From a virus, in the IMG/VR virus record IMGVR_UViG_3300045988_144274, positions 1 to 64,000 of that record: a stretch of DNA of 64,000 nt. One strand, 5' to 3'. The translations under genes were made by a program, and so were the position numbers. Shown piece by piece: positions 3,373-63,565 of the stretch (the first letter of the stretch is position 1; the number at the start of each line of letters is the position of its first letter). Below the pieces are notes generated by a model that searched no databases, was not told where the DNA came from, and saw only the letters and a list, made by a program, of their open reading frames with translations.

Positions 3373-6300
3373 TTATTTAAATTCAACTTCTAGAATCCCA
3401 GTTTGAATGTTATTTAGACGCATTACTTTGTATGTTTCAGTTACGTTTTTACCATTTGTTATTTCCATATCATAGACAATAACATCGGTATTCTTGAAAC
3501 CGTTTATCCAAAAACTAACGCCTTCTCCATAAACATCAAACGGTATAATGTAATAAATATATTTCCCACCTGTACAATCAAAAGTCGTTTTCCCCATAGT
3601 ACGACTAGCCCATCCGTTATTCATTAACATCACATCACCATTGGTCAATTCAGTTACAGAAGATGCGCCCCAATACTTTTTCAAAGAAAAAATATAGTTT
3701 GCTGTTTTTTCAATAGATTGGCTTCCGTAAGTACAAATCACTTTATAATTTTTATCTGTAGTAATTGTAGTAGGAGACGAATATTTGGATTTCTCCTCAT
3801 TAACTCCTTCCGTGCTCCCATTTACGGTTGCAGTTGTTGGCACAACTTCTTCATCTTTATATAAAATAGACCAAAAAATATACGGAGTAACAACTGATCC
3901 CTTTTCAAAAGTTCCTCCGCCAACAAAAGTATCGAACGAAATTTTAAATACCTCGTCCATTAATTCATTTATATTCATAGTTACAACTTTATTTTGCACT
4001 GCATTTGTTGAATTTAAATCCAAGTGGTCGTCTATTGTTATGCTACCACCGCCACCTGTCGGTATGTTAACTGTAATTGGTGCAGAACCATCATATATAG
4101 CTTGTATTGCACCTGTAAAAGAAAGAGCATTAGGATTAGGAAGTTTTGTCGGAGTGTCAGGAACTTTAATCCACTCTTTGTTTTTACGACCATATAAGAT
4201 GTTATTGCTTGGGGCATCAGTTATGCCTTCTGTCATACTCTTTCTTTCCTGCGTCCATTCCGTAGAACCAACTTTTTTTACAAGTACGACATCTTCTGTA
4301 GCAATCTCATCTACAATAGGATTGACATTATATAAACTACCAAGAGTTTGAGGAATTTCTACAGCTTTGATAATCCCGGAATCTTCCTGTATGAAATCTC
4401 CGTTACCCTCTTGAATATTATCTATGCCACCTTCACGCAGGAAATCGGTAGCTCCTTCCTCGCTATTCCCAGTAACATAAATCCCGTCTTTAAATATTAT
4501 ATGTCCGTTAGCTGTATCATCAACATCTTTTCTAATAAAGTATTTCAGTCCCATCTTTAAAAAGTCGATAGAACCGATAGACGACATAATATCCTGTTTT
4601 ACAGCATCAATAGATTTTTGGACATTACCTTTACGTATCGTTATGGTATCGGATAATTCTACCGTAATTTCAGGAAGAGGGTCTGTCTCATTTACCTTAT
4701 AAGTGTATTGACTGATATACAGTTCATGCAGCTTGTTGTTATACTCTATCTGCAATCGTGCATTAGCATCAATCTGTGAAAGCATTTCAGGATATTCAGC
4801 AAAGAATATACGCTTAAAGTTAATAGAGAAGTTGAATTTTTCACTATTATTGGCAGCCATATACTTAATGATAGCTTCTTTAAGCTCATTCTCTGCATTA
4901 AGGATATATTGTTTAGGCAAATCAATATGTAACAGAACAAACGAATCTCCTGATTTAGGCTTATAGTTGCGGTTGTTAGATGGCATTACAACTCCGAATG
5001 TATCATCATCTTTGCTTACCCTAATCCATACCTCATTTGTGGTTGTATCTTGTTGTTGAGGCTGAATATTTGCCTCATTCCATTTATCATCCTCACTACC
5101 TGTTACAATATTGCCATTAGAATCCACTTGTACAGGATTCTTGAATATTGTGATATTATTGTCTTTATCTTCTACTTCTAATACGGATATGACAAAATTA
5201 CAAGCAGCACAATTACCACTCGTCATTGAGATGGTCATATCACTACCTACGATAGCTTGGTCAAAGAGATTAAAGCCATAATCCCCATCAAATTTTCTTA
5301 GCTTTATGTAGAAATATTTATGTTCGTATTCATTTGTGTTAGGGTCTATTTCATCGTTATCATCATCATCAAAAGCTACATCTAATATTTCTCCTATTTT
5401 ATATCCTGCTGCATTTTCAATACCTTTAATAGTTGGCTTGATATAGTCAAAGGAAACAATCATTTCCTTAGGATTACCTTCCGTATAAGGGTTCTCGAAG
5501 TCGTAGTAGCTTCCTGTATCAGGATTTATATAGGTTTGGTTTTTTGCGTCATAGAATCGTTCTGCACCAAACGTCTCTCTGTATATAGATGGCAATAGAT
5601 TAGGAGAAGTAATCATATAATTTCCTTCAACTTGCTTTTGAACAAAGTAATCTCCAATAGAAGGTGTTTTTGTAATATATATGCCAATATTGCTAAGACT
5701 AACAGTATTATCTTTATAACTCCATAAGTTATATTCTGCTGTTGATTCTCTACTTATTTCAAGAAAAGCTTTTTGATTCCCATATACATAATAATCACTA
5801 ACATTTACTAAGGTAGAATAAGAACCTACTATTTTTAATTTATTTGTTCCTTCATTAAGATTAAACGATACTGTCGTTTCAGAGTTTTGGTCGGCTTTAA
5901 TTAAAATCCAATCTGTATCTGATTCATTTCTTTTATATAAAGAAAATGAAGCAAAATCCATTTTTCTTGAAGCTTGCTTTTCTCCCAATATAATACCACC
6001 CTTTTGTATATAGGAATATTTTAAGTTAGCCCATAATTTTAAAGTTAAATAAATAGTAGCTTCATCAGATAAATCTATTATTGCATAATAATTATAAGAC
6101 GTTTCAAACCATTTAAAATTCGCTGTAGATCCATCTCTAATAGTTGGAACAGTCTCTACCGCTTGTGTATAAGGGTATTGCTCATTTAAATTAATGTATA
6201 ATTGAGTAGTAATAGGAAGCTTAGTTTTTTTAAATTCAACCTTTTCTTCCAATGAAACCTTCTCTTTATATAAATCGTTATTTACGACTTGTATATCTTC

Positions 6301-7098
6301 TGTTTTAATTGAGATATTATCTTCTCCGGCAACAGCCCTGACATCTCCTTTTCTCGTATCATTTGGATAGTAATAAGGAATATTTTCAGTACTACCGATA
6401 CCTGTACAGCGATTAACTATTTTATAGTTTGCGTTTGTTTTGGTTATTGTCAGTAGTTCCCTATCATAACCGTATTTAAATGTATGAGTAATAGCATTAT
6501 TAGTAAATCCGATATGGATTACCTTACCGACAAAATAATAAGGTAGTTCATAAACATTAAATACTTCTTGTAGAACTTCACTAAAATACTTGTCCTCAAA
6601 CGACATTAGTTTAGCTTCGGAGGATATACCTTCGTCAATTACAACAGAATAACCTACTCCACTGTATTGTAAAGAGTAATTCAATCTTGTTGCAAACTCT
6701 GCAATATCTCCAAAGAAGGTGAACTTTGTACTATTGCTGACAAATTGGTCTACATCACCTGCATCAGGAGATACTACATCAAAGAAATAAGTATTATCCA
6801 GTTTAGTTCTATCGGATTTAAATACAAGCTCATGTTTATATCTTAAATCTGTATTTGACTTAGATGAAGTAGGTGTATCTAAAATCCAATATCTTTCTCC
6901 CCTAAATTCCACAAATTCCCTCTGCGTCCATTCATCATCCAAGCACTTAGGATACATGAGACTGCTACTTATATTTACGCTACCCATTCTTCCCTCGGTG
7001 AATGTATAACTACTAAGGGCAGCTTGCGTTCCATCTTTAGGGAAAGATATAACGCCTAATTCCTCATCATCAGTATATATAAGTAACTTTTCTACCAT
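3373..7098 (-). CDS. Large tail/baseplate structural protein (Tal-like N-terminus, fibre-like C-terminus)
   Basis: 1241 aa. The N-terminus resembles the siphovirus tail-associated / prophage-tail N-terminal region. The C-terminal domain is paralogous to 1280..3364. Confidence 0.65.
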   Translation of the reverse strand: MVEKLLIYTDDEELGVISFPKDGTQAALSSYTFTEGRMGSVNISSSLMYPKCLDDEWTQREFVEFRGERYWILDTPTSSKSNTDLRYKHELVFKSDRTKLDNTYFFDVVSPDAGDVDQFVSNSTKFTFFGDIAEFATRLNYSLQYSGVGYSVVIDEGISSEAKLMSFEDKYFSEVLQEVFNVYELPYYFVGKVIHIGFTNNAITHTFKYGYDRELLTITKTNANYKIVNRCTGIGSTENIPYYYPNDTRKGDVRAVAGEDNISIKTEDIQVVNNDLYKEKVSLEEKVEFKKTKLPITTQLYINLNEQYPYTQAVETVPTIRDGSTANFKWFETSYNYYAIIDLSDEATIYLTLKLWANLKYSYIQKGGIILGEKQASRKMDFASFSLYKRNESDTDWILIKADQNSETTVSFNLNEGTNKLKIVGSYSTLVNVSDYYVYGNQKAFLEISRESTAEYNLWSYKDNTVSLSNIGIYITKTPSIGDYFVQKQVEGNYMITSPNLLPSIYRETFGAERFYDAKNQTYINPDTGSYYDFENPYTEGNPKEMIVSFDYIKPTIKGIENAAGYKIGEILDVAFDDDDNDEIDPNTNEYEHKYFYIKLRKFDGDYGFNLFDQAIVGSDMTISMTSGNCAACNFVISVLEVEDKDNNITIFKNPVQVDSNGNIVTGSEDDKWNEANIQPQQQDTTTNEVWIRVSKDDDTFGVVMPSNNRNYKPKSGDSFVLLHIDLPKQYILNAENELKEAIIKYMAANNSEKFNFSINFKRIFFAEYPEMLSQIDANARLQIEYNNKLHELYISQYTYKVNETDPLPEITVELSDTITIRKGNVQKSIDAVKQDIMSSIGSIDFLKMGLKYFIRKDVDDTANGHIIFKDGIYVTGNSEEGATDFLREGGIDNIQEGNGDFIQEDSGIIKAVEIPQTLGSLYNVNPIVDEIATEDVVLVKKVGSTEWTQERKSMTEGITDAPSNNILYGRKNKEWIKVPDTPTKLPNPNALSFTGAIQAIYDGSAPITVNIPTGGGGSITIDDHLDLNSTNAVQNKVVTMNINELMDEVFKISFDTFVGGGTFEKGSVVTPYIFWSILYKDEEVVPTTATVNGSTEGVNEEKSKYSSPTTITTDKNYKVICTYGSQSIEKTANYIFSLKKYWGASSVTELTNGDVMLMNNGWASRTMGKTTFDCTGGKYIYYIIPFDVYGEGVSFWINGFKNTDVIVYDMEITNGKNVTETYKVMRLNNIQTGILEVEFK

Positions 7099-12754: not shown

Positions 12755-14314
12755 TTATTCCTCCTTTTTATTATTATTATCTTGTTCTGAATATTTTTGA
12801 GATATTATCAATGCCTGTTCCTGTTGGTATAGTTGCTCATCTATTTTATTTTGCTTTTCTTTTTCAAGTCTAGCTTTCTCATCCGGTTTTGCGTCAGGGT
12901 TCATTTCACTGGCAGTTTCAACAGAAAGAAATCCTGATGTAACTCCTGTTTGTAATCTTGTTACAATATCAGTTTCAGATTGAGGTCTATATACTTTGAA
13001 TTTAGCGTTAATATGTAAGTTGTCGAAATCCGTAATAGCACTGGGTTGAATTTGTGAGACTACAAGTTCTTTTGCTAATCCTTGTTTGAATAGACGAACC
13101 ATTTTATCCGCAACATTTTGCCATTCTATTACACCTTTTGATGCATTCTCAATATCCATTGATTGAGTAAGCATTATAGCAACACCTGATATATCTCCTG
13201 TTGTCTTTACATCTTTAGGGAGCAAGAACGTTGTACTGGAATTTTTCTGTATAGTTTCCTCCATTAACTGCAAAGTATCTATCGTTCCCTGTGGTGATGG
13301 TGGAGTTAAAAATTTAGCATCATCCGTATTTGCTTCTTGACTATATGATGTGTTTTTACTGTTTAAGATAACTGAACCTGCTATCTTCTTTCCATTGTTT
13401 TCAAAATCTCCTTTTATATATAATATTCCCCATCCATGTCTCTTTTGAATTACAAGGAAGATATTGTATAATATTTCATAAGCCTCAATAACACTTTGAG
13501 CATTTTCCCATGCGACCTTTCCTCTTTTAGTTATTAAAGGGATTTCTGTAAAACCATGAGCCTTTGGTGCTAGACGTCTCCATCCATTATCATCTACGTT
13601 AGTATTATCTCTTATCATGCGATAAAAATAAGTATCATCGTATGAATCAATATATTCTACATCATCAATCTTATAATAAACGCTTTCTAATATACGGTCG
13701 CCATTATCATCGTCATGCGGACATAAGACATAGCCATCCATATAGGATAATATACGGGATTTTATTCTATTGTTTTTATCAAAATAATATAAAAGTCCTA
13801 CATCACCAACTGATTTTTGAACGTCAACCATTTTGGTTTTCATTCCGTCTTGGTTTCTTAAATCCCAATACTGTTTAAAGGTAACAAAGTCAGCTCTTTG
13901 TTTTTCATCAGGATTGGCATCCATAAGAGTAAAAGACATTGGAAGTCCGCATAAATGTTGTACCTGCTTGTCTTTAATATTTTGTTGGAAAGAAACCGCC
14001 ATTTTCTTATATTGAACCTCAACAAAGCCACCATTATCAAGTTTCATCGTAATAGAAGGTATGTTCTGATCGTATAAAACCTTATGGTTTTCAGGCTCTA
14101 ATTCCATCAAATACTCATCTTGCGTAATAACACGTTTTTTTAATTGAGGAAGAGTAACCGAAATCATATCTGTAAATCCGGCTCTTTTCAAATAATTATT
14201 CAGTGTATTGTTACATACACACGATGTATCATAACCTCGAAAAAAAGGTTTCTTTTGTAGTATCTTTTCAGGGTTATTCAATAATTCTTGTACTTGTTCT
14301 GAAATTTCACTCAT
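12755..14314 (-). CDS. Portal protein
   Basis: 519 aa, downstream of the terminase. Size, acidic C-terminus and general resemblance to SPP1 gp6-type portals (from memory). Confidence 0.65.
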   Translation of the reverse strand: MSEISEQVQELLNNPEKILQKKPFFRGYDTSCVCNNTLNNYLKRAGFTDMISVTLPQLKKRVITQDEYLMELEPENHKVLYDQNIPSITMKLDNGGFVEVQYKKMAVSFQQNIKDKQVQHLCGLPMSFTLMDANPDEKQRADFVTFKQYWDLRNQDGMKTKMVDVQKSVGDVGLLYYFDKNNRIKSRILSYMDGYVLCPHDDDNGDRILESVYYKIDDVEYIDSYDDTYFYRMIRDNTNVDDNGWRRLAPKAHGFTEIPLITKRGKVAWENAQSVIEAYEILYNIFLVIQKRHGWGILYIKGDFENNGKKIAGSVILNSKNTSYSQEANTDDAKFLTPPSPQGTIDTLQLMEETIQKNSSTTFLLPKDVKTTGDISGVAIMLTQSMDIENASKGVIEWQNVADKMVRLFKQGLAKELVVSQIQPSAITDFDNLHINAKFKVYRPQSETDIVTRLQTGVTSGFLSVETASEMNPDAKPDEKARLEKEKQNKIDEQLYQQEQALIISQKYSEQDNNNKKEE

Positions 14315-56154: not shown

Positions 56155-56889
56155 TTACTTCATTATCTTTTTAAGTTTCCGATACATTGCAGCAGCACGA
56201 ACTGAATTATATTCCATTCCTGTAGCTGTCTTTTGATTCAGATTATTCAATTTTTGTGCAATATCTCCCCAAATTTCGTAGTTTCTAGGCTCTCCCTTAT
56301 CTTTTATCCAATCAGTAATGAAAGCCCAAAAAAACACATTACTTTCATTAACACGTGCATTTTCTCGCCTTTTGTTTGCGGACTCATCGTGCATCTTATT
56401 TATTGAAACTATTCTATCTGTAGAACTATTCTTTCCCCACAATTCTTTTGTTCCTCCTGTTTGCTCATTACGTTTTTTCTTTGCTGCTAAAGCCGCTTTT
56501 GTACGTATGCTAACCAACAATGCTTCTCTTTCAGCCAAACTGAAGAATAATGTCAAAGTAAATTTGTCACTATTAGGTAAATCACAAAAAACAATATTGT
56601 TTTCACCAATTTCCGCTAATACTTGTAGTGCCTCTAATGTATTACGGAAACGATCGCACTTAGCAATAATCAATTTAGCATTTTCTTTCTTTGCGTGTTC
56701 AATCGCTTTCCGTAATTCCGTACATTTAGACAATTCCGTTCCGGTATAAATTTCTTCATAGTCCGCCAACAACAAACCGTTATCTTTTTCTATGAAGTAA
56801 TTTATAATGTCTTTTTGTGCCTCAAGTCCTAAACCAGATCGACCTTGTTTTTGCGTTGACACCCTACGCCAAGAAATATACTTATTCAT
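56155..56889 (-). CDS. Small serine recombinase (resolvase/invertase family)
   Basis: N-terminal YISWRRVSTQKQ (catalytic Ser), LIIAKCDRFRNT, E-helix-like AEREALLVSIRTKAALAAKK, C-terminal helical/HTH-like region. At 244 aa it is too small for a large serine integrase. Confidence 0.8.
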   Translation of the reverse strand: MNKYISWRRVSTQKQGRSGLGLEAQKDIINYFIEKDNGLLLADYEEIYTGTELSKCTELRKAIEHAKKENAKLIIAKCDRFRNTLEALQVLAEIGENNIVFCDLPNSDKFTLTLFFSLAEREALLVSIRTKAALAAKKKRNEQTGGTKELWGKNSSTDRIVSINKMHDESANKRRENARVNESNVFFWAFITDWIKDKGEPRNYEIWGDIAQKLNNLNQKTATGMEYNSVRAAAMYRKLKKIMK

Positions 56890-57357: not shown

Positions 57358-57698
57358 AGTATTTCATTTAATTCTTTTATAATTTCTTCCTTTGTAGCGT
57401 AATCTCGTAAACCTAACAACTTTATCATATATCTTCGGTCTACTTGATCAGGAAACAAATATTCCGAATAAGTTTTAACTATATCCTTTAAAATGATTTC
57501 CGGCTTGTCGTAACTTTCTATCAAGCTGTCGATTAAATGCCCTTTTTCTCCTCTAGCGTCCCACTGATTTACAATTTCATTTGTAGAAAGATTTTCAAAA
57601 GTAAAATACCCTTCTTCGATTTCGTGAACATCACGTACAATCTTTCTACATAGTTCCGGGTATCCATCAATTTGAGATATTATACCGTTATTAATCAT
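57354..57698 (-). CDS. Hypothetical protein
   Basis: 114-aa ORF. Confidence 0.5.
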   Translation of the reverse strand: MINNGIISQIDGYPELCRKIVRDVHEIEEGYFTFENLSTNEIVNQWDARGEKGHLIDSLIESYDKPEIILKDIVKTYSEYLFPDQVDRRYMIKLLGLRDYATKEEIIKELNEIL

Positions 57699-57744
57699 TT
57701 CTTTAAATGACTCTATTTGCTTTTCTGTATACTTTTTTCATAAC

Positions 57745-57894
57745 TCATTCCTCCATTAATTTTACTTTGAGTACTTTCAAGCCGTTTGTAAGTTGCTTTT
57801 CTATTATCTCTTTTGCTTCTTTTTCGTCATTGGCTAATACACCTATATAATAACAAATATTTCCTAGTCCGTAATATACAATATATTCTTTCAT
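57745..57894 (-). CDS. Small hypothetical protein (49 aa)
   Basis: MKEYIVYYGLGN... The frame was checked. Confidence 0.35.
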   Translation of the reverse strand: MKEYIVYYGLGNICYYIGVLANDEKEAKEIIEKQLTNGLKVLKVKLMEE

Positions 57895-57898
57895 AATA

Positions 57899-58123
57899 TT
57901 ATTCTTTAACCGCTACTTTTATACCGTTATGTATTAACTTTACTAAAATACTATCTAACAATTCCCAAGAAAAACACAATATACCGTTTTTATTTAATTT
58001 AATATCTAAAATTTCCTTAGCTATAATTGCATCACTTTCATATATTTGTCCCAAATTATTCTTTTTTATAATTATTAAATAATCGGGGTGTGATTTCTTT
58101 ATTCGTTTAAATATCTCTTTCAT
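57899..58123 (-). CDS. Stand-alone MutS domain I-like protein (74 aa)
   Basis: HPDYLIIIKK..LGQIYESDAIIAKEILDIKL....LDSILVKLIHNGIKVAVKE parallels MutS HP..LLF.R.GDFYE.F..DA......L.I.LT...Y...L...G.KVAI.EQ (aligned from memory). Confidence 0.45.
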   Translation of the reverse strand: MKEIFKRIKKSHPDYLIIIKKNNLGQIYESDAIIAKEILDIKLNKNGILCFSWELLDSILVKLIHNGIKVAVKE

Positions 58124-58232
58124 GGCTTTAATATTTTAAATTGTTTAATATAAACATTCTTCTTTCTATTCTTTTGCGTTCTTTCTCTGAATAATATACT
58201 TTGTTATTCATCACCGTACAAACGAATTCTAT

Positions 58233-58240
58233 TCTTTTAT
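58233..58240. repeat. Left 8-bp target-site duplication TCTTTTAT
   Basis: Identical to 62895-62902, and immediately outside the terminal inverted repeats. Confidence 0.8.
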
Positions 58241-58256
58241 GGCACTTATATACGAC
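58241..58256. repeat. Left terminal inverted repeat core (16 bp perfect)
   Basis: ggcacttatatacgac. The reverse complement is found at 62879-62894. Confidence 0.85.
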
Positions 58257-58316
58257 TCAACACCTAGCCTTGTGCCATAACTTTTAGTTATAACTTTGTT
58301 AATCTTTATGAGAGTA

Positions 58317-59181
58317 TCATTTTCTGATACTCTCTATTTTATTTGTAAATTCAGAAATGTCTTTTCCTTCTAGTTCTAAAGTCTCTTTGACCTCTGCTAG
58401 AACTTTTGGTAAATATTCTAATGAAAGTGGATCTTTCTTCCCTAAATATTTGGCAGCATAAACAGGTAGCCAAACTCCATGTACAAACTCTATAAATATA
58501 TGAAGCATTTCATTTGGATACATATTTGCAGGGAACTCATACCCATTAGGAAACTTGTGTTTATAGTTTCTTTTATTGTTCAGCATTTCAGGATATTTAT
58601 CTTCTAAATAGGCGACAAAACGCCTTCCCACTGAATTATCTGGGCGAATCTCCTTATCATCAATACCTTTATTAGGTATAACATATCCATGATATTCAAA
58701 TAATCGGTTTAATGTTAAATATAATTGAGATACAACAGAAAAATAAGTTATTGGTGTTCGTTTATCATTTTCTTTAAATCTAGTGAGAAAATTAGGTTCT
58801 TCTTTCCTATTAATTTTGCCATAATATCCTTTCTCCCGAATAGAAGGAATCACTTCATCAAATATCCATGATTCAAATCTTTCAGCAGATGGGAGTTTAG
58901 AACGAATAATTAAGCGGTAAACATCTCCTTCGGGTATAAAATTCATATTTACTCCACCTATGCCATTGGCATGAGCAACATAGCATTTCTCTATATTGCC
59001 TGATTTACAATGAGTTGTAACAGCTTCTGCGGGGTTTTCATATCCTAACATTTTCGCTACATCGGATGCACAAAAAAAGTATTTTACCATCTTCCTTTTC
59101 GATAGTTCTCAATTCGTTAAATTGAGATTCTTCTTCCGATTCATATTTGAATATCTCAAATTGATAATTAATATTTTCCAT
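58317..59181 (-). pseudogene. Bro-N domain protein gene split by a 1-nt frameshift in a homopolymer
   Basis: Fragment 59181->59038 encodes MENINYQFEIFKYES..NELRTIEKEDGKI. The ORF 59090->58317 continues YFFCASDVAKMLGYENP. Together they rebuild a canonical Bro-N. The shift lies in A4 (59082-85) or T7 (59072-78). Confidence 0.6.
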
Positions 59182-59274
59182 ATTTTCTTCATTTATACTT
59201 ATAAATAAAAAAGCTCTTTCTAGTTGGTGTTAACTGGAAAGAGCATGTTTCTTTTTCGACTGCTAAGATAGCAA

Positions 59275-59472
59275 TTATTTTTCAATCTTCCAATTTATTT
59301 TTGTATAAAGTGAAATAAAGAAGAAGCCTATCAGGCACATAGATACTATATCTGTTACCATAGATATAATTGGTGAAATTTTAGTGATTAGACAAATAAT
59401 CGCCATGATTGCTTTTAATAGGCATCCTATAAATGCTATTAAAGATGCTGTTTTGAAATTTGTTATTCTCAT
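59275..59472 (-). CDS. Small two-TM membrane protein
   Basis: 65 aa, hydrophobic. Confidence 0.5.
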   Translation of the reverse strand: MRITNFKTASLIAFIGCLLKAIMAIICLITKISPIISMVTDIVSMCLIGFFFISLYTKINWKIEK

Positions 59473-59501
59473 TTTATTGGGTTATTAATTTACTTATAGA
59501 G

Positions 59502-60068
59502 TTATTTCCATTTATCAAGATTTCCTTTCTGTATTTCTTTCTCAAATAAACTATAGGCGTCCCTTGCTTTTTCAGCTGCACTCTTTTTGATTTTAAAATC
59601 AAAATATCCATCAGTAGTATAGATTCTTACAGAAGTCATCAACTTATTTTTGAATACAGATAAATCACCTAATAACAAATACCTTATTCCCCATGAATCC
59701 ATACCTAGTGCTCCTACAGTTCCTTCACCATGTCCTGCTGCATAATCTGATATAGTAAAGATGTGTGTATTATCATCTTCATCAAGGAAAATAACTTTAG
59801 ATTCATTTCTTTTGGCTATATATACATTTATTGACATCCATTTCATCAACATCATATCTAACCCATTCTCATGTCCAAAGCATATCCATATAGTTTTCCC
59901 TAATTGTCTCCCCATTATTAATGGTTCAGAAGATATTTTCTCATAAGACGTGTACACAACTTTGTCTTTTGTGAATTTATCAGTTTTGCTAACTTTAATA
60001 CTTTGAGCTTGAATATTGATGCTAAACATCAATAATAATAGAAGTATAATATTCTGTTTCATAATCAT
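59502..60068 (-). CDS. Secreted protein (signal peptide)
   Basis: N-terminal IILLLLLMFSINIQAQS signal-like sequence. Confidence 0.55.
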   Translation of the reverse strand: MIMKQNIILLLLLMFSINIQAQSIKVSKTDKFTKDKVVYTSYEKISSEPLIMGRQLGKTIWICFGHENGLDMMLMKWMSINVYIAKRNESKVIFLDEDDNTHIFTISDYAAGHGEGTVGALGMDSWGIRYLLLGDLSVFKNKLMTSVRIYTTDGYFDFKIKKSAAEKARDAYSLFEKEIQKGNLDKWK

Positions 60069-60445
60069 TTCTTGTTACATTTAAATTTAGTGTATATTGT
60101 TTCATTATTTAAAGTGAACTGTAATTCACAATATTCCCACCATAATTCAGTTACATAACATTTAATGTACTCTTGTTCTCCTACATAAAAAGTTAGATTT
60201 CTTTTGGACAGGTGCCATGTACCTGATACATTTCCTAGATAGCCATTTGTCGAATATGAGCCATCAGGTCTGATTGTTAAAGTAATTTGTAAACTTGGAT
60301 TTTTAGAAACTCCAACCCATTCTTCATTTTGTTTTATTTGTTGCAATTTCCATGTTCCCATCAAAGCATCTTTATAAAGATTGTCTTTTGCACAACTTGT
60401 GCATAATAGAATAGTGAATACAAAAAACGGCAAATACTTTCTCAT
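60065..60445 (-). CDS. Lipocalin-like lipoprotein
   Basis: Lipobox LLCTSC followed by AKDN. GTWKL motif typical of lipocalin-like domains. Confidence 0.6.
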   Translation of the reverse strand: MRKYLPFFVFTILLCTSCAKDNLYKDALMGTWKLQQIKQNEEWVGVSKNPSLQITLTIRPDGSYSTNGYLGNVSGTWHLSKRNLTFYVGEQEYIKCYVTELWWEYCELQFTLNNETIYTKFKCNKK

Positions 60446-60453
60446 ACACTTGT

Positions 60454-60472
60454 GTTTTATTGGTTAATACTA
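60454..60472. repeat. Inner inverted repeat, left copy (18/19 match to 62444-62462)
   Basis: gttttaTtggttaatacta versus the reverse complement of tagtattaaccaTtaaaac. Ends 8 nt from the ATG of 60065..60445. Confidence 0.8.
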
Positions 60473-60514
60473 AATAATAATGTTTCCATTTAGTTAGCAT
60501 CACCTCACGCATAT

Positions 60515-60725
60515 ATATGAAAAAGGCGTAGAGCTAATGCCTAACGCCATCGAGGGCTACCACACCCTACTCACTTATAGGCAAAAGTCTACGCCAGTAT
60601 ATGGCGTATAAACGCAATACACCCATAAGTGAGTTCCAAAATAGCCTTATTGCTGTCAATGTGGTAGTTCGATGGCGATTAGGCTATAATACGTAAAAAG
60701 CGTACCATCTATTCGATGATACGCT
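60515..60725 (-). promoter_or_regulatory. Highly structured 5' leader (riboswitch-like) of the lipoprotein operon
   Basis: Nested helices: P1 60539-60553 / 60669-60684 (15 bp, 1 bulge), P2 60557-64 / 60660-67, P3 60569-81 / 60623-34, P4 60590-95 / 60603-08. A terminator at 60520-60548 shares its 5' arm with the P1 3' strand. Confidence 0.5.
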
Positions 60726-60726
60726 G

Positions 60727-60757
60727 CAAATATAGATATAAAGTTTGATATTTCAAA
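60727..60757 (-). promoter_or_regulatory. Promoter-like TTTG-N19-TAnnTTTG on the minus strand
   Basis: The plus strand shows CAAATATA at 60727-34 and CAAA at 60754-57, with a 19-nt spacer. Confidence 0.4.
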
Positions 60758-60890
60758 TTAAAGTATTAATTATAGTTACTGATAATCTTCCTTAAAAAAT
60801 AAAGAAAATATTTTTTAATCACGTAATAAATTATACATTTGCATTGACTTTTGGAAAAGGAGCTAATAACACTTACCGTTTTTGCACCTA

Positions 60891-60927
60891 AAAAAAATGA
60901 AACCCAGTATCCTACTACTGGGTTTTT
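60891..60927. terminator. Bidirectional intrinsic terminator
   Basis: 10-bp stem aaacccagta (60900-09) / tactgggttt (60916-25), with A7 upstream and T5 downstream. Confidence 0.7.
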
Positions 60928-60990
60928 GTCTTGTAGTAGGATACAGGACATTAAACAGGCTAAAAGCCAAAAAAGGAAGGAGGTGTTATT

Positions 60991-61128
60991 ATGTCCAATT
61001 CCAAAGTCATCAATGGTAAATTATGCAAGTTGATATTTGCTAAATCTATTATTAGAAATGGTAAAACGATTTATCCAAAGAAATCTAAAGTATTCGCTTT
61101 TTGGATTCCAGTAGAGAAATCGGCTTAA
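60991..61128 (+). CDS. Small basic protein (45 aa) with a strong SD-like leader
   Basis: GGAAGGAGG lies 8 nt upstream of the ATG. The frame was checked to the TAA at 61126-28. Followed by a hairpin. Confidence 0.3.
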   Translation: MSNSKVINGKLCKLIFAKSIIRNGKTIYPKKSKVFAFWIPVEKSA

Positions 61129-61140
61129 TAATTTATCGCT

Positions 61141-61162
61141 ATGGGGTGGTAGGACACCCCAT
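61141..61162 (+). terminator. Hairpin after the small ORF
   Basis: atggggtg / caccccat stem with a weak T-run. Confidence 0.4.
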
Positions 61163-61182
61163 ATTTAATCATAGCATTACCG

Positions 61183-61374
61183 TTACTCCTTCTTCTTTTC
61201 CTCCTTGTCTTTATCTTTCTCATCTTCAACTTGATCCGGTGTTTTCCCTTCCGCAATGTGCGCCATCTTTCGGAGCAGTTCATCGAACTGTTCTTTAGGA
61301 ACAGAAAAGTTAATCTCTAACCTCACTGTTTTAATGTTACTTAGGTCTATTTCTTGTTTCTTTTTCTTTCCCAT
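61183..61374 (-). CDS. Small Lys/Glu/Asp-rich protein downstream of the transposase
   Basis: Starts 3 nt after the transposase stop. Confidence 0.45.
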   Translation of the reverse strand: MGKKKKQEIDLSNIKTVRLEINFSVPKEQFDELLRKMAHIAEGKTPDQVEDEKDKDKEEKKKE

Positions 61375-61376
61375 AA

Positions 61377-62279
61377 CTAAGCTGCATTACGCAAAAGTAA
61401 ATTAAATCTTTGAGAATCGGTAAAATTTCGAGTATTAAATCGGAAAATATATTCGTCAATATACCTCTGCATATATTTTTTGCTTACATGATAGTATATC
61501 CCAAATATCATTCTCTTGAAATGCGACCACACATTTTCGATACCGTTCGTACTAACAACGATTATCTCACCTTCATCTGTTGCATAGGTCGTACCATAGA
61601 AATGTTTTTCATGGTCTACTGACCTTTGTACATACTTCCCATGCAGTCCACTGTAATCCCAACCATCAGTATAAACAACACTACCTAATTCAACTTTTTC
61701 TTTGATAATCGGAACTATAGTTTTAGCTTGTGTATTGGGAACAACTTTGGCAATAACCTTACCACCTCTTTCAAGTATTCCGAATACAGGAACTTTATCC
61801 TTATAACTACGTCCTTGACATTTCTCTACTTTCTTATCCTTATGTCTATTTTTATTCTTCCCACCTACAAACGCTTCATCAATTTCAACCTCACCGGATA
61901 AAGTATGGCTATTCTCCATCTCCATATATTGTCTAATCTTATGGAGCATCTTCCACGCTGTTTTTTGAGTTATACCTAAATCTCTCGCTAATTGACATGA
62001 TGAAACACCTCTCTTATGTGACAAGAATAACATCATAGCATAAAACCATGCTTTCATAGGCAGTTTAGTATTGGCAAATGCAGTACCAGTTTTAACATCA
62101 AAGTATCTTCCAGTATTCTTGCATTTATACTTACCATTACCACATTTATAAACCTTAGAATTGCTGTCATAAGGCGAAATGACTTCATCTCCCCATCGCA
62201 TCTTCTCAAAATATCTGATGCAACTTTCTTCATCAGGAAAGTTTTCAGATAGAGTTAAAAGAGTAAAATCGGTTTTCAT
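61377..62279 (-). CDS. IS1595-family (ISXO2-like) DDE transposase
   Basis: N-terminal zinc ribbon (YKCGNGKYKCKNTGRYFDVKTGTAF) followed by HTH (SSCQLARDLGITQKTAWKMLHKIR), then EVEIDEAFVGGK and YTDGW DDE-domain strings. Confidence 0.85.
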   Translation of the reverse strand: MKTDFTLLTLSENFPDEESCIRYFEKMRWGDEVISPYDSNSKVYKCGNGKYKCKNTGRYFDVKTGTAFANTKLPMKAWFYAMMLFLSHKRGVSSCQLARDLGITQKTAWKMLHKIRQYMEMENSHTLSGEVEIDEAFVGGKNKNRHKDKKVEKCQGRSYKDKVPVFGILERGGKVIAKVVPNTQAKTIVPIIKEKVELGSVVYTDGWDYSGLHGKYVQRSVDHEKHFYGTTYATDEGEIIVVSTNGIENVWSHFKRMIFGIYYHVSKKYMQRYIDEYIFRFNTRNFTDSQRFNLLLRNAA

Positions 62280-62431
62280 AACGTCAAATTTTTAGCTATC
62301 CAAATATACTAAAAATCAACGATATTAGCAAGCCATTTGCAATATATTTTCAAGGAAGTTTTTCGCAAGAATGCTAAAGAACATTCTTATACAACATATA
62401 GAGCAATGTACTGCTTACAAACTATAAACAG

Positions 62432-62439
62432 TACATTTG
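62432..62439 (+). promoter_or_regulatory. TAnnTTTG box upstream of the KTSC gene
   Basis: TACATTTG. No clear TTTG at -33. Confidence 0.3.
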
Positions 62440-62443
62440 CGAC

Positions 62444-62462
62444 TAGTATTAACCATTAAAAC
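62444..62462. repeat. Inner inverted repeat, right copy
   Basis: See 60454-60472. Ends 8 nt from the ATG of 62471..62662. Confidence 0.8.
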
Positions 62463-62470
62463 GACAAAAT

Positions 62471-62662
62471 ATGATACCTATTGCATCCTCTGCATTTCTC
62501 GGAGTAGATTATAATTCCGAAACAAGAGCTTTAACAGTATATTTTAGAGATGGAAGAAATTACACTCATCATGGAGTGCCAGAATCAGTATACAAACAAT
62601 TTCTTAACGCTCCTTCAAAGGGCAAGTTTTACAATCAGTACATAAAAGGGATTTATCAATAG
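62471..62662 (+). CDS. KTSC domain protein
   Basis: GVDYNSETRALTVYFRDGRNYTHHGVPESVYKQFLNAPSKGKFYNQYIK matches the KTSC domain pattern. Confidence 0.7.
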   Translation: MIPIASSAFLGVDYNSETRALTVYFRDGRNYTHHGVPESVYKQFLNAPSKGKFYNQYIKGIYQ

Positions 62663-62822
62663 GTTTTAATTGCCAAGCATTTTCCCTAATCCAATCAATA
62701 TCTACCTCATGTGGGTCACGGTCTATAGCCCATGCTCCACATGAGGTATCATAAAACTCTCTTAATTGTTCATACGTAAGCTCATTTTTTACTTTTTTTT
62801 CTTCTTCAATTTTCTTTTCCAT
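62604..62822 (-). CDS. Hypothetical protein (3' end overlaps the KTSC gene convergently by 59 nt)
   Basis: 72-aa ORF. The first gene inside the right end of the transposon. Confidence 0.4.
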   Translation of the reverse strand: MEKKIEEEKKVKNELTYEQLREFYDTSCGAWAIDRDPHEVDIDWIRENAWQLKPIDKSLLCTDCKTCPLKER

Positions 62823-62878
62823 AATCTTTATTTTTTAATTGTTATTACTTTTTGTTATGACCTAAACACTAGTGTCGG

Positions 62879-62894
62879 GTCGTATATAAGTGCC
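62879..62894. repeat. Right terminal inverted repeat core (16 bp perfect)
   Basis: gtcgtatataagtgcc is the reverse complement of 58241-58256. Confidence 0.85.
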
Positions 62895-62902
62895 TCTTTT
62901 AT
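62895..62902. repeat. Right 8-bp target-site duplication TCTTTTAT
   Basis: Identical to 58233-58240. Confidence 0.8.
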
Positions 62903-62926
62903 TTATAATTGTTCTTTTTTTCATGA

Positions 62927-63142
62927 TTACATATTTTCTTTAATAACGTTACCGCTTAAATTCCATTCATCGAATGTGTCTAGTATAATTTCCTCTGTTT
63001 TTCTTTCCGAAATTATAATACGGTCGCTATATAAACCGCTAATATCAGACCCTCCGCTACATGTAAATATTATATTTACGTTATACTCGTCTAACAAACT
63101 AGCTAATTTTGTTAGAAACTCTTTTCTTTTTTCTTCACTCAT
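62927..63142 (-). CDS. Hypothetical protein
   Basis: Operon context. Confidence 0.5.
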   Translation of the reverse strand: MSEEKRKEFLTKLASLLDEYNVNIIFTCSGGSDISGLYSDRIIISERKTEEIILDTFDEWNLSGNVIKENM

Positions 63143-63446
63143 TGGTAAAATCTTTATTTTCTATCAAATTAGGTTCGTGCCTTTCCAAAAAAGATATTAA
63201 TTCTTTGTAAGACGTATTATTATCTATAGCACAAGATAGCGAATAATTAAACTTACCTTTATACATTTTGGGCTTCAATTCGCCTAGATTATTAAAATAC
63301 ATTTGTCTAACTGATACAAATAATTTACTTTGTAAATATTTGGAAAAAGACACAATATGATCACAAATAGATACAATGTTATTATTATAAACGTTACTAT
63401 AAACTAGTTCGTTATCTCTATAAATATCTAATTTAAATGCTTTCAT
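63135..63446 (-). CDS. Hypothetical protein
   Basis: Operon context. Confidence 0.5.
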   Translation of the reverse strand: MKAFKLDIYRDNELVYSNVYNNNIVSICDHIVSFSKYLQSKLFVSVRQMYFNNLGELKPKMYKGKFNYSLSCAIDNNTSYKELISFLERHEPNLIENKDFTNE

Positions 63447-63565
63447 GACTTTCTTTTTTATTTGGTTAGCAAAATATAATTCCTAATATATACAATACTA
63501 AAAGTATTCCATATAAAGCGGAAAAGCCTTTTATTATCTCTTTAAATTCTTTCCGTTCCATAAAA

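Follow-up and report, generated by a model that had tools for sequence, protein, structure and literature searches.

The locus and its boundaries

The DNA considered here, referred to as the window, is a stretch of 64,000 nucleotides (nt) which covers positions 1 to 64,000 of the virus record IMGVR_UViG_3300045988_144274 in IMG/VR. It represents phage DNA, since a large terminase (4e-56), an SbcC-like nuclease and a portal gene are encoded in it. The subject of this study is a segment of 4,654 bp at positions 58241-62894, which very probably is a cargo transposon inserted into the accessory region of this phage. An earlier interpretation of the bare sequence, called the original prediction in the following, had listed an IS1595 transposase, a Bro-N gene, a lipocalin-like lipoprotein and a KTSC protein among the genes of this segment, and all four were confirmed. 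One methyltransferase gene of the window is 88% identical to cultured Bacteroides phages. In the phage GenBank collection this gene is the only part of the phage body that matched Bacteroides phages, and the transposon region matched a single unannotated 5-kb fragment at 78% (MT838557). Matches as sparse as these indicate that the window's phage is absent from that collection.

Both ends of the segment are formed by terminal inverted repeats, one at the cargo-distal end (58241-58294, plus strand), the other proximal to the transposase (62841-62894, minus strand). The first 16 nt of the cargo-distal repeat, GGCACTTATATACGAC (58241-58256), recur without mismatch (16/16) as their reverse complement at 62879-62894, and complementarity continues at 70% out to 54 nt, making this the longest inverted pair in the region. 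The coordinates of the termini are exactly those given in the original prediction, which had put the looser inward similarity at about 55 nt. The cargo-distal repeat additionally contains a subterminal ATAAC-N5-GTTAT motif. Further instances of this end were found in L013, L040 and numerous metagenome loci, and of the transposase-proximal end in L002, L012, L018, L033 and others. No third copy of GGCACTTATATACGAC was found in the 64-kb window, even with 3 mismatches allowed, and hence the segment has no internal end.

Directly abutting the two ends are exactly matching copies of the 8-bp sequence TCTTTTAT, at 58233-58240 on the left and 62895-62902 on the right, again at the predicted coordinates. 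Taken by itself this 8-mer proves nothing, because it is a common A+T-rich word with 22 occurrences in the window. It is the combination of repeat and duplication that is decisive: the window holds 47 exact 16-nt inverted pairs within 10 kb of each other, and 1 of these 47, the pair of the element, has identical 8-mers directly outside. The combination of an inverted pair with flanking identical 8-mers was seen in 0 of 100 Markov-simulated windows.

The empty insertion site

An empty site in related phages had been envisaged in the original prediction, and the uninterrupted junction, in which a single TCTTTTAT joins position 58232 to position 62903, was indeed detected in 9 viral contigs by a 27-nt junction probe. 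One of these, an 85-kb contig (L025), matches the window at 100% identity over flanks of 387 and 1,106 bases. This phage is thus known in two forms, which differ by exactly the 4,654 bp of the element and one copy of the 8-mer. As the empty sites are single-copy and the bases adjoining TCTTTTAT in the window differ on both sides, the duplication cannot be extended and is not part of a longer local repeat, which the original prediction had named as a potential objection. The target of the insertion is a spacer of about 140 nt between two small co-directional genes (57899-58123 and 62927-63142), both on the minus strand as predicted.

Filled and empty sites thus lie in otherwise identical phage sequence, by which the acquisition of a moron cluster by a phage is displayed cleanly at the sequence level as one transposition of a cargo-carrying insertion sequence (IS). 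The view that the "moron" cluster is transposon cargo, put forward in the original prediction, is borne out by an empty site that lacks all 4,654 bp at once and by the lack of an internal end. In common with phage morons, the genes concerned are accessory genes with their own promoters and terminators, located between phage genes and dispensable, as displayed by the relatives with an empty site. Unlike in phage morons, their delivery is explicit in the window element, namely DDE transposition of a cargo-carrying IS.

An assembly artefact, by which a chromosomal copy of the transposon would have been mis-joined into a phage contig, deserves consideration, given that the window is probably metagenomic in origin and that bacterial and metagenome contigs contain the element far more often (at least 120 hits) than viral contigs do (7 hits). 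However, both junctions are precise and carry a duplicated 8-mer that a mis-join would not produce, and related elements with duplications are present in the large viral contigs L038 (83 kb), L036 (63 kb) and L037 (97 kb) as well. We consider such an artefact highly improbable.

The gene just downstream of the insertion (57899-58123, minus strand, 74 aa) displays a match to MutS domain I (6.5e-7). As an accessory gene of a phage, such an isolated piece of MutS is unusual.

Transposase and mobility of the family

The only transposase gene within the element (61377-62279, minus strand) is intact and encodes an IS1595-family DDE transposase of 300 aa. The protein matches the profile PF12762 (DDE_Tnp_IS1595) over its entire length (1.1e-42, positions 1-153 of 153) and the NCBIfam model NF033547 with 200.2 bits (cutoff 75). 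The catalytic residues D134, D205, E248 and K255, with the lysine seven positions after the glutamate as is usual in the family, are invariant across transposase relatives down to 38% identity, in line with the IS1595-type assignment originally proposed. Homologues number 3,784 (E up to 1e-20), and the named ones, from B. fragilis and B. finegoldii, are only called "IS1595 family transposase". Some homologues bear a precomputed hit to the N-terminal zinc ribbon PF12760, and the invariant cysteines in this region are C46 and C53 only.

Relatives with IS1595-type transposases of 33-100% identity are found in Bacteroides genomes, gut metagenomes and other phages. Among the genomes are those of Bacteroides sp. 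f07, B. thetaiotaomicron, B. ovatus, B. caecimuris and B. vicugnae, and more distant relatives occur in Taibaiella and a Thiotrichales bin. The exact terminal 16-mer is present in 21 viral contigs, 16 of which share the extended end similarity; the hits in the other five (L006, L008, L011, L017, L020) are chance matches in unrelated G+C-rich sequence and were discarded. At 42 loci both ends are in view, and we refer to these as complete elements. They measure 2.5-4.9 kb, and 36 of the 42, the window element included, are flanked by perfect 8-bp duplications (35 distinct sequences, 94% A+T). The statement in the original prediction that this family typically makes 8-bp duplications is thereby substantiated, and the other copies of the termini that it had envisaged exist by the dozen at different sites, 35 of them with a perfect duplication of their own. 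Bacteroides sp. f07 carries two copies of 3,416 bp (L046, L048) with different duplications in one genome. An 84-kb metagenome contig (L074) contains the right half of the window element, from the leader RNA described below to the end, at 99.9% identity (two differences) and at a different insertion site, which indicates that the variant bearing the Bro-N gene has moved as a unit. The family is mobile.

The only unit of the family below this size range is a miniature inverted-repeat transposable element (MITE) of 88 bp, consisting of two fused ends (L004, positions 2077-2164) and flanked by its own duplication TAAAATAA. There is a second 88-bp miniature copy in L021 (807-894), the right flank of which is common with L004 while the left flank is not. 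Transposase-less units of end, leader and cargo, such as L150, are known as well. In these two respects the family resembles MITEs and mobile insertion cassettes, which here represent by-products of the family and are distinct from the window element.

Typical members of the IS1595 family measure about 1 kb. It may hence be asked whether only an IS of about 1-1.5 kb around the transposase is mobile in the window, the left repeat being an older solo end and the lipoprotein and Bro-N genes ordinary morons, which the passenger genes do resemble. This idea conflicts with an empty site that lacks all 4,654 bp at once between 100% identical flanks, with the missing third end copy (3 mismatches allowed), and with the size of the complete relatives, 42 of 42 of which measure 2.5-4.9 kb. 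It is further contradicted by the same cargo in L042 next to a transposase of 70% identity, and by the same right half elsewhere in L074. We regard it as very unlikely. The original prediction had contrasted the length of 4654 bp with the usual length of about 1 kb; the length was exact, but it is no anomaly, as no transposase-bearing complete copy falls below 2.5 kb.

A serine recombinase of 244 aa (PHROG "DNA invertase", 1.5e-17) is encoded 1.3 kb from the insertion at 56155-56889 (minus strand); no link between this gene and the transposon was found. Its proximity, together with the mosaic nature of the family, the modules of which do get shuffled by recombination, might point to an entry of the segment by recombination, either through this enzyme or by illegitimate or homologous exchange of morons, with repeat and duplication arising by coincidence. 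The empty site contradicts this. So do the simulations, in which the configuration of repeat and duplication never appeared (0 of 100), and the 35 other perfect 8-bp duplications that the same ends give at unrelated sites. Serine recombinases are not known to make 8-bp duplications. Recombination thus appears hardly credible as a route of entry.

Relation to known transporter IS

The term "transporter IS" (tIS) denotes an established category of IS with passenger genes that play no part in transposition, which reportedly occurs in the IS1595 and IS66 families only (TnCentral). Passenger-carrying tIS are documented for IS1595, with Siguier, Gagnevin and Chandler (2009) as the work cited for them. 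In the window, the Bro-N/BstA-like gene, the genes of the lipocalin lipoprotein, the 188-aa and the 65-aa protein, the KTSC gene and the 72-aa gene all lie within one pair of ends. A single duplication surrounds everything, with one transposase gene and no internal end, and hence the whole unit inserts and is not a compound IS. With high confidence, and as far as sequence can tell, positions 58241-62894 represent a single unit transposon, a transporter IS of the IS1595 family.

Several observations weigh against this interpretation. A second contig with the same filled site was not found, so that the insertion in the window has been seen once only. The match to the zinc ribbon PF12760 (6.4e-4, 20.1 bits) stays under the Pfam cutoff of 25.4. 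Matching duplications are lacking in 6 of the 42 complete relatives (L034, L035, L078, L094, L139, L149), for which later recombination between copies is a likely cause. Finally, the proteins of 188, 65, 63, 72 and 45 aa described below match nothing in Pfam, NCBIfam, PHROGs or PADLOC.

The tIS of the IS1595 family reportedly belong to the ISfinder groups named ISNwi1+ and ISPna2+. The end of the window element, GGCACTTAT, resembles ggnnatTAT, which we take to be the ISNwi1 consensus. The order D-D-E-K followed by E..R presumably corresponds to the DDEK+ER4 signature of the ISNwi1 group, and the size of the element lies within 1.75-4.75 kb, which we assume to be the range of ISNwi1+; placement in this subgroup is accordingly an assumption of ours.

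The window element joins a known class, and the carriage of cargo as such is not new. It shares with other tIS of the IS1595 family a single DDE transposase, inverted repeats, an 8-bp duplication and passengers within one pair of ends. It differs from them in that its family resides in Bacteroides and their phages and is characterized by four fixed cargo slots, a structured leader RNA and an open reading frame (ORF) of about 60 aa, and in that the cargo of this family comprises envelope proteins, a BstA-like gene and toxin-antitoxin modules of Panacea type. With ordinary IS of the IS1595 family (about 0.7-1.2 kb; IS1595, ISPna2, IS1016) it has the transposase family, the end repeats and the 8-bp duplication in common. 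These carry the transposase only, whereas autonomous elements of the window family have never been seen below 2.5 kb. For the purpose of annotation, IS1595 transposases of Bacteroidota belong with units of 2.5-5 kb and not with IS of about 1 kb. Novelty as a transposon is modest, and the leader RNA is the most novel lead.

Modular organization and cargo

Comparison of the window element with about 30 relatives displays a conserved backbone with four variable cargo slots, and the family is mosaic. In the orientation of the transposase, the first half consists of an end repeat, slot 1, the transposase, the ORF of about 60 aa and slot 2, and the second half of a terminator hairpin, the leader RNA, slot 3, a terminator, slot 4 and the other end repeat. 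All four slots are filled in the window copy, which for this reason is the longest in the close subclade with the conserved terminal 16-mer.

Slot 1 holds a KTSC-domain protein of 63 aa (62471-62662, plus strand; KTSC 1.2e-19) with the box TAcaTTTG upstream, and convergent with it a 72-aa ORF (62604-62822, minus strand), which accompanies KTSC in L034, L042 and L091. The backbone ORF of 63 aa (61183-61374, minus strand; MGKKKK...FSVPKEQFDELLRKMAH) starts 3 nt past the stop codon of the transposase and is conserved across the clade. Slot 2 is occupied by an extra module of 444 bp (60735-61178), which among the relatives is present in L043 only, where it sits in the same slot at 95% identity although the transposase of L043 is only 69% identical. 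This module contains a basic 45-aa ORF on the opposite strand (60991-61128, plus strand), preceded by a Shine-Dalgarno-like GGAGG, which is atypical of Bacteroides. At 60899-60926 it also forms a bidirectional hairpin. The transposase operon ends in a hairpin with a T-run (60699-60725, minus strand). A different hairpin with compensatory changes takes its place in L046 and L051, and a Bacteroides-type -7 box, TAtaTTTG (60727-60734, minus strand), overlaps the hairpin region 60699-60734.

Slot 3 starts with a lipocalin-like lipoprotein of 126 aa (60065-60445, minus strand), displaying the lipobox LLCTSC and a match to Pfam Lipocalin_4 (1.8e-5). A lipocalin lipoprotein of 34% identity is also cargo of the distant elements L036 and L037, and lipoproteins of this kind recur even in elements with a transposase of only 56% identity. 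The next gene encodes a signal-peptide protein of 188 aa (59502-60068, minus strand) that belongs to a Bacteroides-restricted family of 63 members, all "hypothetical". For an AlphaFold2 (AF2) model of this protein (predicted local distance difference test, pLDDT, 81.5) there was no match in the Protein Data Bank (PDB) better than E = 0.045 and template modelling (TM) score 0.29. A hydrophobic, membrane protein of 65 aa (59275-59472, minus strand) completes the operon, with homologues after the 188-aa gene in L009, L042 and L046. The backbone terminator hairpin past the cargo operon (59213-59244, minus strand) is kept in all relatives (element positions WIN 3615-3702 at 93-96%) and adjoins the end repeat in elements without slot 4.

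In the Bacteroides genome locus L042, the slot-1 and slot-3 cargo of the window element is combined with a transposase of only 70% identity, from which it follows that modules have been exchanged between divergent backbones. In other relatives, different lipoproteins, membrane proteins or membrane proteins with a zinc ribbon are encoded in slot 3. Gene pairs with a Panacea domain (SocA-like antitoxin) are present in the Bacteroides genome loci L045, L046/L048 and L051 (transposases about 65% identical), on the opposite strand between transposase and leader; their presence in several relatives marks toxin-antitoxin modules as recurrent cargo of the family. This data exposes an abundant and previously unnamed, modular tIS family with envelope and defence-type cargo in Bacteroides, a dominant genus of the gut. 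Through this family, surface lipoproteins, a BstA-like gene and toxin-antitoxin modules pass between the chromosomes and the phages of the genus, which is of relevance to competition of phages with their hosts and with each other in the gut.

A 19-nt motif, TAGTATTAACCAWTAAAAC, is found at 60454-60472 (minus strand) and 62444-62462 (plus strand), 8-9 nt upstream of the start codons of the lipocalin and the KTSC gene. It was considered as a phage-wide signal, which was rejected, as it occurs only inside the element before these two cargo genes. Being conserved before the first cargo gene in relatives, it may represent a shared 5′-untranslated region (UTR) or translation-initiation module of unrelated cargo genes.

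The Bro-N/BstA-like passenger

Slot 4 holds a Bro-N/BstA-like gene (58317-59181, minus strand) that is frameshifted, as originally predicted. The only cause is an extra T in the homopolymer run 59072-59078, which is T7 in the window and T6 in L074. Removal of one T restores a protein of 287 aa, and the allele of L074 is intact with the same 287 aa. The Bro-N match amounts to 1.4e-18 as found, and to 1.6e-21 over the full profile (1-96 of 96) after repair. The frameshift in the window could have arisen very recently by mutation, could reflect phase variation, or could be an error in sequencing the homopolymer. The C-terminal half matches the PADLOC model of BstA (1.7e-10, model positions 146-270 of 292) and phrog_6287 (4.9e-17).

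BstA proteins are prophage-encoded abortive-infection proteins described in Proteobacterial prophages (Owen et al., 2021; PMC8585504). The product of the window gene is similar in its combination of an N-terminal DNA-binding domain of KilA-N/Bro-N type with a C-terminal domain that fits the BstA model. It is different in being encoded by transposon cargo of a Bacteroides phage, and in the frameshift of the window copy. By its sequence the gene is a candidate defence gene.

The leader RNA

Between the transposase operon and the slot-3 cargo lies a structured leader RNA of about 170 nt (60520-60692, minus strand). In comparison with L038 it is more strongly conserved than the transposase (95.6% versus 81%). 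Its minimum free energy (MFE) is -70.4 kcal/mol with z = -7.0, and covariation supports the fold, so that the structured leader before the operon noted in the original prediction was well founded. A scan of 57500-63500 against Rfam 15 at E up to 1 gave no match for the leader. The L25-leader hit returned by Rfam (30 nt, E = 0.72) lies elsewhere in the element and is spurious.

Covariation was assessed on 14 diverse leader sequences, against 500 shuffles and slid controls. Two folds emerged, which are mutually exclusive and each of which beats 500 of 500 shuffles and all slid controls. The first is a long-range fold of three helices with 16 pairs displaying compensatory changes and 81.8% paired (slid controls 32-46%). 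The second combines a local helix at the 5′ side with a 9-bp stem at the 3′ side, GGCGUAGAC/GUCUACGCC, followed by a U-tract, and is 94.8% paired with 13 covarying pairs. A 5-bp terminator pairing of the 3′ strand of P1 with ACGCC was also considered and was replaced by this 9-bp stem of the apical strand, which is better for L097 and L144. The RNA structure is thus conserved in two states. Folding of successive prefixes indicates that the local 5′ helix forms first and has to be displaced for the long-range fold. As this order corresponds to the logic of an attenuator or riboswitch, the leader may be a transcription attenuator that gates the slot-3 cargo.

The leader is similar to known riboswitch and attenuator leaders in being a conserved 5′ leader with two exclusive, covarying folds, one of which has a terminator stem and U-tract. 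It is dissimilar in that it belongs to no class of Rfam 15, is contained in a DDE transposon and is followed by cargo that can be exchanged. We tentatively propose, as a possibility on which we would not yet rely, that the two-state leader represents a new riboswitch or attenuator class built into a Bacteroides transposon family, giving a mobile, regulated expression cassette that shuttles envelope and defence genes between chromosomes and phages. If true, each element would combine a fixed promoter, a switch and a 5′ UTR with a downstream slot in which envelope or defence genes can be exchanged. The Bacteroides phylum has few characterized riboswitch-like elements, and the leader is a testable candidate for a new cis-regulatory RNA.

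Some of the data speaks against a built-in switch. When the terminator fold is forced on the window copy, it reaches -59.3 kcal/mol versus -70.4 kcal/mol and is thus 11 kcal/mol less stable. A pattern scan revealed at least 120 copies of the leader in gut metagenomes and 7 in viral contigs. Among the 120 metagenome matches listed, 85 directly follow an IS1595 transposase gene of the same orientation and 18 are cut by contig ends, and 16 of the 120 have their own TAnnTTTG promoter, no transposase upstream, and lipoprotein or membrane-protein genes downstream. Instead of being a component of the transposition machinery, the leader may thus belong to a cargo cassette that was captured.

It is also conceivable, if rather doubtful, that the leader does not switch the cargo at all, but acts as a stable small RNA in its own right, such as an antitoxin, a decoy or a regulator of transposition, or as a stabilising 5′ UTR. 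The long-range fold is very stable and thermodynamically dominant, the leader has its own promoter-like box and a U-tract end, and Panacea toxin-antitoxin modules occupy adjacent slots in some relatives, all of which would fit a small RNA. On the other hand, the exclusive second fold makes a U-tract terminator at 94.8% pairing with 13 covarying pairs, the distance to the start codon of the first cargo gene, which comes after the conserved 19-nt motif, is short and fixed, and the genes downstream of the leader nearly always encode envelope proteins.

Proposed mechanism of transposition

The best-supported course of events starts with recognition of both inverted repeats by the 300-aa D-D-E-K transposase, through the 16-bp core and probably also through the subterminal ATAAC-N5-GTTAT motifs. 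The enzyme would cut A+T-rich DNA with an 8-bp stagger, repair of which would leave the 8-bp duplication, and everything between the ends would move along with the element. In the present case it landed in an A+T-rich intergenic spacer of a Bacteroides phage of about 85 kb. The donor was most likely a copy on the chromosome of a Bacteroides cell that was infected by the phage or lysogenic for it. We infer this direction of transfer from the contigs, as bacterial ones contain the family much more often than viral ones. The element would move either by cut-and-paste or by copy-and-paste. The cargo may serve inter-phage competition or surface modification.

A TnpB unit with a related end

Sister phages contain a further unit with an IS1595-type terminal sequence. 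The contig IMGVR_UViG_3300045988_162524 (L010), which holds the empty tIS site, includes at 5485-6827 a unit of 1,343 bp encoding only TnpB, with OrfB_IS605 and a Cas12f-like TNB domain. The first 26 nt of the unit correspond to the tIS end GGCACTTATATACGACCCGAYACC, and its other end is an inverted GGCACTTATAT. Units of this kind are also present in L007 and L015. These 1,343-bp units were considered as short members of the tIS family and rejected, as they encode TnpB and lack an 8-bp duplication. In L010 the unit is located at the 3′ end of the portal gene, of which it supplies the last 9 codons. Its empty site is found in the window at 12780-12797 (minus strand), where TCTCAA-AAA-TATTCAGAAC stands in place of the L010 arrangement of TCTCAA, the unit and TATTCAGGAC.

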